Origin: Escherichia coli
GTDB taxonomy: Bacteria; Pseudomonadota; Gammaproteobacteria; Enterobacterales; Enterobacteriaceae
DNA length: 64,000 bases
Assembly: GCF_044324875.1 (NCBI RefSeq)
Contig: NZ_CP172185.1
Reading direction: 5' to 3' (one strand)
Part shown: positions 23,008 through 23,234 of the stretch, piece after piece
How the letters are laid out: each line of letters starts with the position of its first letter
Numbering within the stretch: position 1 is the first letter of the stretch
Position numbers and translations under genes: made by a program
Notes under the pieces: model-generated
Databases searched by the model: none
Seen by the model: the letters and a program-made list of their open reading frames with translations, nothing else
What the model was told of the DNA's origin: nothing

Positions 23008-23234
23008 CAATTTCGCAAATCGCAGATAGCAAAAAAGCGCCTTTAGGGCGCTTTTTTACATTGGTGGGTCGTGCAGGATGACTCGCTTCGCTCGCCCTTC
23101 GGGCCGTCGCCGCGAGCGGCTCCGTTGTTTCGCTGCGCTCAACTCGAACCTGCTGCAGGTTCGAATCTTTGAGTATCGCAGATAGCAAAAAAGCGCCTTT
23201 AGGGCGCTTTTTTACATTGGTGGGTCGTGCAGGA
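23008..23234. repeat. 60-bp direct repeat pair (23008-23067 and 23175-23234): 17 nt of tRNA-Lys 3' end plus 43 nt of downstream terminator region
   Basis: Both copies read atcgcagatagcaaaaaagcgcctttagggcgcttttttacattggtgggtcgtgcagga. Copy B is the real 3' end of lysV; copy A is a truncated tRNA 3' fragment. The 107-nt spacer carries the palindrome cgaacctgc-t-gcaggttcg. Confidence 0.85.

Follow-up and report, generated by a model that had tools for sequence, protein, structure and literature searches.

What is a second, truncated 3′ end of a tRNA-Lys gene doing beside the intact lysV gene of E. coli? In the 64-kb stretch of DNA analyzed here (“the window”), the tRNA operon valU-valX-valY-lysV occupies positions 23614-23218 on the minus strand, with gltX beyond it, an arrangement as in E. 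coli K-12. The xapR gene, whose stop codon ends at 22953, faces the operon, and between xapR and lysV the end of lysV and its terminator occur twice. The initial annotation of this DNA offered two explanations for the duplication: the scar left by a largely deleted integrated element, or the duplication of a tRNA-operon terminator of the kind known downstream of tyrT. The second proposal is right, and if anything understates the relationship. The duplicated tRNA-Lys end and terminator at lysV are one unit of the catalogued RtT family, which is already known, and both alignment and Rfam indicate that this unit is in fact homologous to the tyrT repeats. Specifically, it is highly probable that the repeat, which is 61 nt long, bounds one 156-bp RtT tandem unit (Rfam RF00391; the prototype is rttR, in the tyrT operon). 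The genes and signals of the neighborhood are as follows:

22054..22953, plus strand: xapR, which converges on the valU operon (open reading frame; identical DNA is so annotated in RefSeq)
23003..23371, minus strand: open reading frame of 122 aa (from the list of open reading frames), spanning lysV, the RtT unit and part of valY
23218..23293, minus strand: lysV, tRNA-Lys (ARAGORN; Rfam tRNA, 79.2 bits; agrees with the K-12 annotation)
23298-23373, minus strand: valY, tRNA-Val(UAC) (ARAGORN and K-12 annotation)
23420-23495, minus strand: valX, tRNA-Val(UAC) (ARAGORN and K-12 annotation)
23539-23614, minus strand: valU, tRNA-Val(UAC) (ARAGORN and K-12 annotation)
23659-23632: promoter-like site upstream of valU (promoter scan, 11/12 matches)

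The exact direct repeat reported in the initial annotation is real, but its dimensions need to be revised. A repeat search across the 64-kb window gives two copies of 61 nt rather than 60 nt, at 23019-23079 and 23175-23235, with 100% identity. The repeat therefore starts 11 nt to the right of 23008, where it had been placed. The copies lie 156 nt apart from start to start, not 167 nt, and the spacer between them is 95 nt long (23080-23174), not 107 nt. Each copy consists of 18 nt of the tRNA-Lys 3′ end (not 17 nt, since ARAGORN puts the 3′ end of lysV at 23218) and a 43-nt trailer that includes the terminator, such that a hairpin, then a T-run, and the lysV 3′ end are all found inside the repeat. 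The copy that is upstream on the plus strand had been described as a truncated tRNA end; indeed, it matches the lysV 3′ end exactly. The 18-mer TGGTGGGTCGTGCAGGAT (plus strand) occurs exactly twice in the window, and only 0.03 matches are expected in shuffled sequence, even with three mismatches allowed. A 61-nt exact repeat in 64 kb cannot be due to chance. Chance similarity and an assembly artefact were both considered and are rejected outright, because the repeat is exact over 61 nt and the same structure is found in K-12 MG1655 and in ~1,900 complete genomes. The parts of the structure are as follows:

23019..23079: distal 61-nt copy (repeat search)
23031..23057: distal terminator hairpin, identical to 23187-23213 (fold)
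23062..23079, minus strand: truncated tRNA-Lys 3′ end, ATCCTGCACGACCCACCA, an exact match to lysV positions 23218-23235
23062..23187, minus strand: RtT element as defined by Rfam RF00391 (cmscan: 51.6 bits, with the gathering score at 45; E = 1.4e-9; the match covers the full model, positions 1-130)
23080..23174, minus strand: RtT body between the repeat copies, 95 nt, which aligns with the tyrT/tyrV units and with the terminal tRNA-Lys units of other genera
23144..23164: palindrome TCGAACCTGC-T-GCAGGTTCGA (from the sequence)
23175..23235: proximal 61-nt copy, made up of the lysV 3′ end (23218-23235) and the trailer (23175-23217), 100% identity
23187..23213: proximal intrinsic terminator hairpin, AAAAAAGCGCC-TTTA-GGGCGCTTTTTT, a 13-bp hairpin in the fold

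How are these parts arranged? Read on the RNA strand, the CCA of lysV is followed by ATGTAAAAAAGCGCCCTAAAGGCGCTTTTTTGCTATCTGCGAT (trailer and terminator), ACTCAAA, GATTCGAACCTGC, A, GCAGGTTCGA, a 64-nt core and, finally, ATCCTGCACGACCCACCA. An inverted-repeat search shows that GATTCGAACCTGC is the exact reverse complement of the lysV T-arm. On the RNA strand, the palindrome is hence an antisense copy of the tRNA-Lys T-arm, followed by the sense 5′ strand of the T-stem and the start of the T-loop (GCAGGTTCGA). The lysV RtT unit closes at its 3′ terminus with ATCCTGCACGACCCACCA, which starts within the T-loop and consists of the remainder of the T-loop, the 3′ strand of the T-stem, the 3′ strand of the acceptor and CCA. 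Between them lies the core of ~64 nt (…AGCG…ACGGCCCGAAGGGCGAG…CGAGTC), and the 18 nt of tRNA after the core begin at ATCC. Judged from the sequence, the sense tRNA 3′ region appears to be split within its T-loop by the core. The T-arm-like palindrome, which the initial annotation had singled out as odd, is present as described and is a conserved antisense/sense T-arm hairpin, a feature of long-type RtT units with the counterpart GAACCTTCGACYAAGGTTC in the units that follow tRNA-Tyr. Folding of the spacer, as initially suggested, and of its surroundings predicts the palindrome as an 11-bp helix, and each of the two terminator hairpins as a 13-bp helix. Because the proximal hairpin is flanked by an A-tract and, on its opposite side, by a T-tract, it looks bidirectional.

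Assignment to the RtT family rests on a covariance-model match and on alignment. The Rfam match begins within the proximal terminator, 31 nt past the CCA of lysV on the same (minus) strand, and extends as far as the CCA at which the truncated tRNA ends. The match at lysV is only 6.6 bits over the Rfam threshold; searched in another context, the K-12 copy reaches 47.3 bits. Elsewhere in K-12, the model matches four units at tyrT-tyrV (133-137 bits), where rttR is annotated, and units after lysT, lysW, lysY and lysZ (54-60 bits) and after lysQ (46.7 bits). The PGAP pipeline places an “RtT sRNA” at the equivalent coordinates in NZ_CP010121.1, and likewise in other RefSeq E. coli genomes. The spacer between lysV and xapR carries no annotation in the curated K-12 record, and a literature search did not find a description of RtT at lysV. 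Taken with the alignment to the Tyr and lysQ units, the Rfam match identifies the 217-nt structure at lysV as 1.39 copies of a 156-bp tandem unit. One other candidate identity was discarded: part of the spacer resembles the region near the ColE1/pBR322 origin, but the plasmid search returned no ColE1-type plasmid, and an Rfam match to RNAI at this locus is noise (19 bits vs. 47 bits).

The alignment (MAFFT) covers all ten K-12 units, and a second alignment covers the terminal Lys units of 12 other species. The lysV unit is homologous to the tyrT/tyrV units by way of AGGTTCGA-GAGCG-AGCGA-…ACGGCCCGAAGGG-…CGA-T-ATCC, and the shared core reads …GGTTCGA-GAGCG-AGCGA…ACGGCCCGAAGGGCGAG…CGAGT-ATCC. Like the lysV unit, the tyrT/tyrV units lie directly downstream of a tRNA gene, are arranged in tandem, vary in copy number, and terminate in the final 18-19 nt of the cognate tRNA, from the T-loop onward (19 nt for Tyr). 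They follow the same plan with a sequence of their own, GAACCTTC-GACY-AAGGTTCGA … ATCCTTCCCCCACCACCA, and the antisense/sense T-arm hairpin is common to both. Thus, the truncated tRNA end belongs to the RtT unit itself, just as in other members of the family, and is not the remnant of an attachment site. There are also clear differences. The cognate tRNA is Lys at lysV and Tyr at tyrT, and the period is 156 bp as opposed to 178 bp. The lysV unit has a strong intrinsic terminator at its 5′ end that is absent from the tyrV-distal units; termination distal to tyrV is reportedly Rho-dependent. The first hairpin of the core is GAGCCGCTCGCGGC in the lysV unit and CGTTGCC…GGCAACG in the tyrT/tyrV units, and the lysV unit scores 51.6 bits, far from the 133-137 bits of its tyrT/tyrV counterparts. 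Furthermore, the helix that closes the RtT structure is degenerate at lysV, unlike that of the tyrT/tyrV units: four of the eight model pairs are non-canonical, and the 5′ strand of the helix is ACTCAAAGAT, compared with TCGTGCAGGGT in Erwinia and CGTGTAGGAT in Cedecea. It is degenerate in the lysV copy of K. aerogenes, too.

The closest relative in E. coli is the unit at lysQ, where the lysT operon ends, which is identical to the lysV unit at 155/156 positions and has the same terminator on both sides, although its distal repeat copy is 54 nt long instead of 61 nt. The identity of the lysV and lysQ terminators has been described previously (PMC4176162). By contrast, the short internal units in the spacers after lysT, lysW, lysY and lysZ are only 98-100 nt long and have neither the terminator nor the T-arm hairpin, but they keep nine of the ten pairs of the closing helix.

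Is the unit a fixed part of the E. coli chromosome? The population set comprised 5,426 complete E. coli genomes, with counts derived from search coverage classes and from evenly spaced samples. The lysV locus has 0, 1 or 2 RtT units across the species, and each of these states was seen in example genomes. Among the 4,088 genomes with xapR, 1,909 (~47%) have at least one unit beside it. In 45 evenly sampled xapR-positive genomes, the gap holds 0, 1 or 2 units in 23, 21 and 1 cases, respectively, and nothing larger; the query for this sample was a chimera of the xapR 3′ end and lysV-valY-valX, and both halves matched at one place in 45/45 genomes. The counted classes (2,710 and ~1,360 genomes, ~4,070 together) cover essentially all of the 4,088 xapR genomes, with a sampling error of ~90, so that a few rare genomes may carry an insert. 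In genomes that lack xapR, a 4.4-kb yfeN-xapABR segment (positions 18618-23015 of the window) is swapped for a 0.4-kb segment encoding a FlxA-like protein, and the junction lies 3 nt past the end of the repeat block. The unit may be absent or present in this context also, with at least one unit in 380 genomes. Since both states are seen in both contexts, the presence of the unit is independent of the flank. Overall, roughly 40%–45% of E. coli genomes have the unit at lysV. The lysQ unit is similarly polymorphic (2,508/5,425 genomes, ~46%).

These data bear on two proposals in the initial annotation. It had envisaged strains with larger insertions bounded by the tRNA core, yet only 0, 1 or 2 units were present in the sampled E. 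coli genomes. It had also associated an ancient structural duplication with the same repeat in every genome and no inserts; the sampled genomes indeed have no larger insert, but the repeat is polymorphic. The pattern of variation suggests that the number of units at lysV would change by homologous unequal recombination, or by slippage, between the 61-nt repeats. It also suggests that the lysQ and lysV units may exchange by gene conversion, because identical tRNA and terminator sequences flank the unit at both loci. The near-identity of the lysV and lysQ units contrasts with the ~9% divergence of the unit from its K. aerogenes orthologue.

RtT units are not limited to E. coli. A scan for the core pattern with one genome per species found at least 120 loci, in Enterobacterales, Orbales (Gilliamella) and marine Gammaproteobacteria. 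Among the loci listed, the cores follow tRNA-Lys (57), tRNA-Tyr (37), tRNA-Arg (30) and tRNA-Pro (15), and in 115 of the 139 cases with an upstream tRNA, the 8-19 nt (mostly 18-19 nt) after the core match the 3′ end of that tRNA exactly. In the examples inspected, these tRNA-end segments begin at (A)ATCC. All of the RtT units that were examined individually end in 15-19 nt of the cognate tRNA, and the tested units of the Pro, Arg(CCG) and Lys types pass Rfam's own RtT threshold. The order seen at lysV, with a tRNA, a terminator, an RtT body, a tRNA end and a second terminator, is seen again after the final tRNA-Lys gene of Pantoea, Erwinia, Mixta and Rosenbergiella, and the terminal tRNA-Lys units of Pantoea and Erwinia have the same period of 156 nt. 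Indeed, the terminal Lys units of other genera align with the E. coli unit over their whole length. The same duplicated-terminator layout is found behind tRNA-Pro in Pantoea, Kluyvera, Pseudescherichia and Gilliamella, and there can be up to three units in Pantoea. The position of RtT has been reported to vary between strains of Erwinia pyrifoliae (PMC7542023). K. aerogenes carries a homologue of the unit at gltX-valU-lysV, the orthologous site, where the terminator is likewise duplicated and the neighbors are different. A separate observation concerns this K. aerogenes unit: it has a second core-like module after GATTCGA in the antisense T-arm. On its own, the second module gives no match to the RtT model at E ≤ 1; its local alignment score is 32, compared with a mean of 13.5 and a maximum of 25 for shuffled sequences.

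Is the RtT body at lysV transcribed? The transcription start site of the operon has been reported 9 nt upstream of valU, and the full-length valU transcript, of ~438 nt, was the sole species hybridizing to a terminator probe in a Northern blot (PMC4176162). RNase P cleaves two to three nucleotides past the CCA and thereby removes the terminator (PMC4176162). The distance from the start site (~23623) to the end of the proximal U-tract (23187) is 437 nt, whereas a transcript reaching the distal terminator would be 593 nt long. The fit of 437 nt to the ~438-nt transcript indicates that transcription mainly stops before the RtT body, and the proximal hairpin is the operative terminator of the valU operon. 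A promoter scan found no promoter-like site on either strand within or just upstream of the RtT body. Judged from the example of tyrT, transcription probably reaches the lysV RtT unit only by reading through the proximal terminator. The two hairpins escaped a scan based on the terminator consensus, probably because their A- and T-tracts pair and so take up the T-tail; their designation as terminators is supported by the folds and by the published Northern blot.

What would happen to a read-through transcript? On the model of tyrT, the RtT body at lysV would be excised by tRNA-processing enzymes and released in the manner of rttR, which is annotated from just past the CCA of tyrV to the pseudo-CCA of the first unit. 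The distal hairpin would be the first terminator met by convergent transcription from xapR, and could serve as a back-up for read-through from valU. The closing helix has lost its 5′ strand, which is in keeping with a copy that is in decay and weakly expressed. A parallel can be drawn with 3′ETS-leuZ, a small RNA that is derived from a tRNA precursor and has sponge activity. Like 3′ETS-leuZ, the lysV RtT would be a by-product of a tRNA operon transcript freed by tRNA-processing nucleases; the two differ in that 3′ETS-leuZ, which has the sponge activity, lies upstream of its operon terminator, whereas the lysV RtT body lies beyond it.

Could the lysV structure nonetheless be the remains of a phage or island that integrated at the 3′ end of lysV, generating attL and attR, and then lost nearly all of its DNA, leaving 95 nt? 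Formally, an intact tRNA, a short insert and a truncated 3′ end that starts in the T-loop make up an attL/attR layout: in tRNA-integrated prophages and islands, too, an intact tRNA is followed by a distant repeat of its 3′ part from the T-loop. Crossover sites in the T-loop are typical of one class of tRNA-targeting integrases. Moreover, about half of the genomes have “empty” sites, and the DNA past the repeat block is variable, being either the xap cassette or the FlxA-like segment, with a junction only 3 nt from the end of the repeat. This explanation is nevertheless very unlikely. The 95-nt spacer that would have to be the residue of the element has homologues in the RtT bodies of tyrT, tyrV and lysQ as well as in those of other genera, and thus belongs to a conserved chromosomal family found behind four kinds of tRNA. 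The repeat is not limited to the tRNA 3′ segment but runs 43 nt past the tRNA, terminator included. The occurrence of 0, 1 or 2 tandem copies is the behavior of a tandem repeat, and the unit comes and goes independently of the xap and FlxA-like flanks. That K. aerogenes (at the orthologous site) and Erwiniaceae share the architecture also speaks against a scar, as does the absence of any larger insert from the sampled E. coli genomes. The spacer has no open reading frame of its own, no integrase and no element DNA, and the sampled genomes likewise have only RtT units at the locus. A search of the literature for lysV as an integration site, or for a link between lysV and an integrase, found neither.

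Searches for related mobile DNA point the same way, since the phage, plasmid and IMG/VR collections gave matches only as host flank. A distant-mode blastn search of the whole 217-nt structure against phages and plasmids yielded no genuine match: the hits were mis-binned chromosomal fragments, two unannotated fragments of <2 kb, and chromosome-sized or non-mobilizable “plasmid” records, which look like chromosomal fragments. A pattern scan of IMG/VR returned one contig, with a Mu-like prophage (MuA, MuB and a CI-like repressor) that adjoins three RtT/terminator units after a tRNA-Lys. This match is host flank, reached by the non-site-specific transposition of the Mu-like prophage. The scar proposed in the initial annotation can therefore be set aside in favor of an RtT tandem unit, given that the spacer is a conserved RtT body, that no larger insert was sampled, and that no related phage or plasmid sequence was found. 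A different possibility accepts that the structure is an RtT unit and holds that the lysV copy is an expressed, processed regulatory RNA like rttR, so that its presence or absence would matter to the phenotype. The family prototype is a stable 171-nt RNA freed during tRNA processing (Bösl and Kersten 1991, cited by PMC3318445 and PMC7542023), and rttR has been proposed to modulate the response to amino-acid starvation. RtT RNAs are differentially expressed in RNA-seq data from K. pneumoniae (PMC4147364). In addition, the hairpin after GGGCGAG shows compensating changes and the closing helix tracks the identity of the tRNA, which suggests selection on structure. For the lysV copy itself, however, a regulatory role is unlikely. 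Its body lies downstream of the intrinsic terminator at which the valU transcript ends, no promoter-like site was detected for it on either strand, and its closing helix is broken, as is that of the K. aerogenes copy. The unit is also absent from about half of E. coli genomes, and the predicted fold of its 113-nt body is only modestly better than those of shuffled sequences (z = −2.3).

The wider biology lies in the RtT family as a whole rather than in the lysV copy. The feature is already labelled by the NCBI annotation pipeline in E. coli genomes, and its recognition here matters little for the lysV locus itself. The regularities of the family (cognate tRNA ends, a split T-loop and an identity-matched closing helix) could make the function and origin of RtT, which was described over 30 years ago, testable. 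The 5′ strand of the closing helix matches the identity of the tRNA across the family: the helix is GGGGAAGGAT/ATCCTTCCCC in Tyr units, GGGAGGAT/ATCCTCCC in Arg units, CGTGYAGGRT/ATCCTGCACG in Lys units and AGAGGAT/ATCCTCT in Pro units. In Amphritea, a variant tRNA-Lys sequence, ATCCTATACG, is matched by CGTATAGGAT, and the hairpin after GGGCGAG varies with compensating changes. The units examined look like an inverted duplication of the cognate tRNA 3′ region, with the T-loop split as TTCGA^ATCC by a core of ~64 nt, and their tRNA-derived parts track four identities (Lys, Tyr, Arg and Pro) from Enterobacterales to Oceanospirillales-like genera.

What might account for these regularities? The identity-matched helix and its compensating changes could reflect selection on an RNA that mimics the acceptor and T-arm or, equally, the concerted evolution of an inverted, tRNA-derived repeat. 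An ancient insertion may lie at the root of the RtT family. There is a small chance, though we consider it rather doubtful, that the family is more than a passive repeat, and is instead an insertion module for T-loop-like hairpins or a set of mimics of the tRNA acceptor and T-arm. As mimics, the units would stay matched to their tRNAs because they engage the same processing or charging machinery. As an insertion module, the core would be, or would once have been, an element that targets T-loop-like hairpins.

There are also practical consequences for genome annotation. In enterobacteria, a truncated tRNA end beside a tRNA gene is not, on its own, evidence for an integrated element. A copy-number polymorphism of 156 bp can confuse assembly and island-prediction tools. 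Finally, the 122-aa open reading frame on the minus strand (23003-23371), which reads through lysV and part of valY, is an artefact, as was recognized from the start. Two tRNA genes on its own strand are overlapped by it, and part of its peptide is repeated in frame because the 156-nt period equals 52 codons. Hence, it should stay out of gene calls.

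RtT cores are associated with several tRNA types. Among the matches listed from the core-pattern scan of one genome per species, cores sit behind genes for tRNA-Lys, tRNA-Tyr, tRNA-Arg (ACG and CCG) and tRNA-Pro (UGG and CGG), and their taxonomic spread extends from Enterobacterales to Gilliamella, Marinobacterium and Amphritea. In these matches, each core is capped by the last 15–19 nt of the cognate tRNA, and the 5′ strand of the closing helix of the units likewise matches the tRNA identity. In the examples inspected, the cap begins at (A)ATCC of the T-loop.

K-12 has an RtT unit downstream of lysQ, at the end of the lysT operon (L006 1654–1845). 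It matches the lysV unit at all but 1 of 156 positions and is flanked by the identical terminator, with a distal repeat copy of 54 nt. The lysQ unit is polymorphic, being found in 2,508 of 5,425 genomes. Its near-identity to the lysV unit, together with its presence in some genomes and absence from others, suggests that the ends of the two tRNA-Lys operons evolve in concert.

In E. coli, short RtT-like units separate the tandem tRNA-Arg(ACG) genes of the arg tRNA cluster (L088). These units match the core pattern and include the 3′ end of tRNA-Arg, and they are missed by annotation pipelines because they score below the Rfam gathering score. In strain 7CC, the intergenic length at L009 4927–5206 fits one RtT unit, with 97.9% identity to the query, and the annotation of that interval contains no RtT feature. 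A few substitutions are probably sufficient to push this marginal copy under the Rfam threshold.

The RtT unit at lysV in Klebsiella aerogenes contains, nested within its antisense T-arm, a second core-like module (…AACGCGACAGCGTTGGCCCGTAGGGCGAGTCTCAGGATGAGACGAGTT; L131 2570–2650). This module starts directly after GATTCGA, and its last five bases, TTCGA, also precede the point at which the main core interrupts the sense T-loop. Searched alone against Rfam, the nested module had no match; its local alignment is significant.

On a viral contig (IMGVR_UViG_2836850911_000005), a Mu-like prophage end with a CI-like repressor, MuA and MuB adjoins tRNA-Lys (L130 11057–12712), behind which lie three tandem RtT/terminator units of ~153 bp each. 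These units look like host flank taken into the viral contig.

The sequence beside lysV also varies. The 4.4-kb yfeN-xapA-xapB-DUF1427-xapR segment (window 18618–23015) is an alternative cassette: in the E. coli genomes that lack xapR, roughly one in four (5,426 − 4,088), the stretch from yfeR to lysV instead holds a 0.4-kb segment that codes for a FlxA-like protein (L004 5597–6000). The junction on the side of lysV lies 3 nt past the end of the 61-nt repeat block, the direct repeat at lysV. In the same neighborhood, the tandem tRNA-Ala(GGC) pair alaX-alaW (window 26313–26503) is a single gene in strain STEC1588 (L008 8300–8375), a further tandem tRNA copy-number polymorphism.
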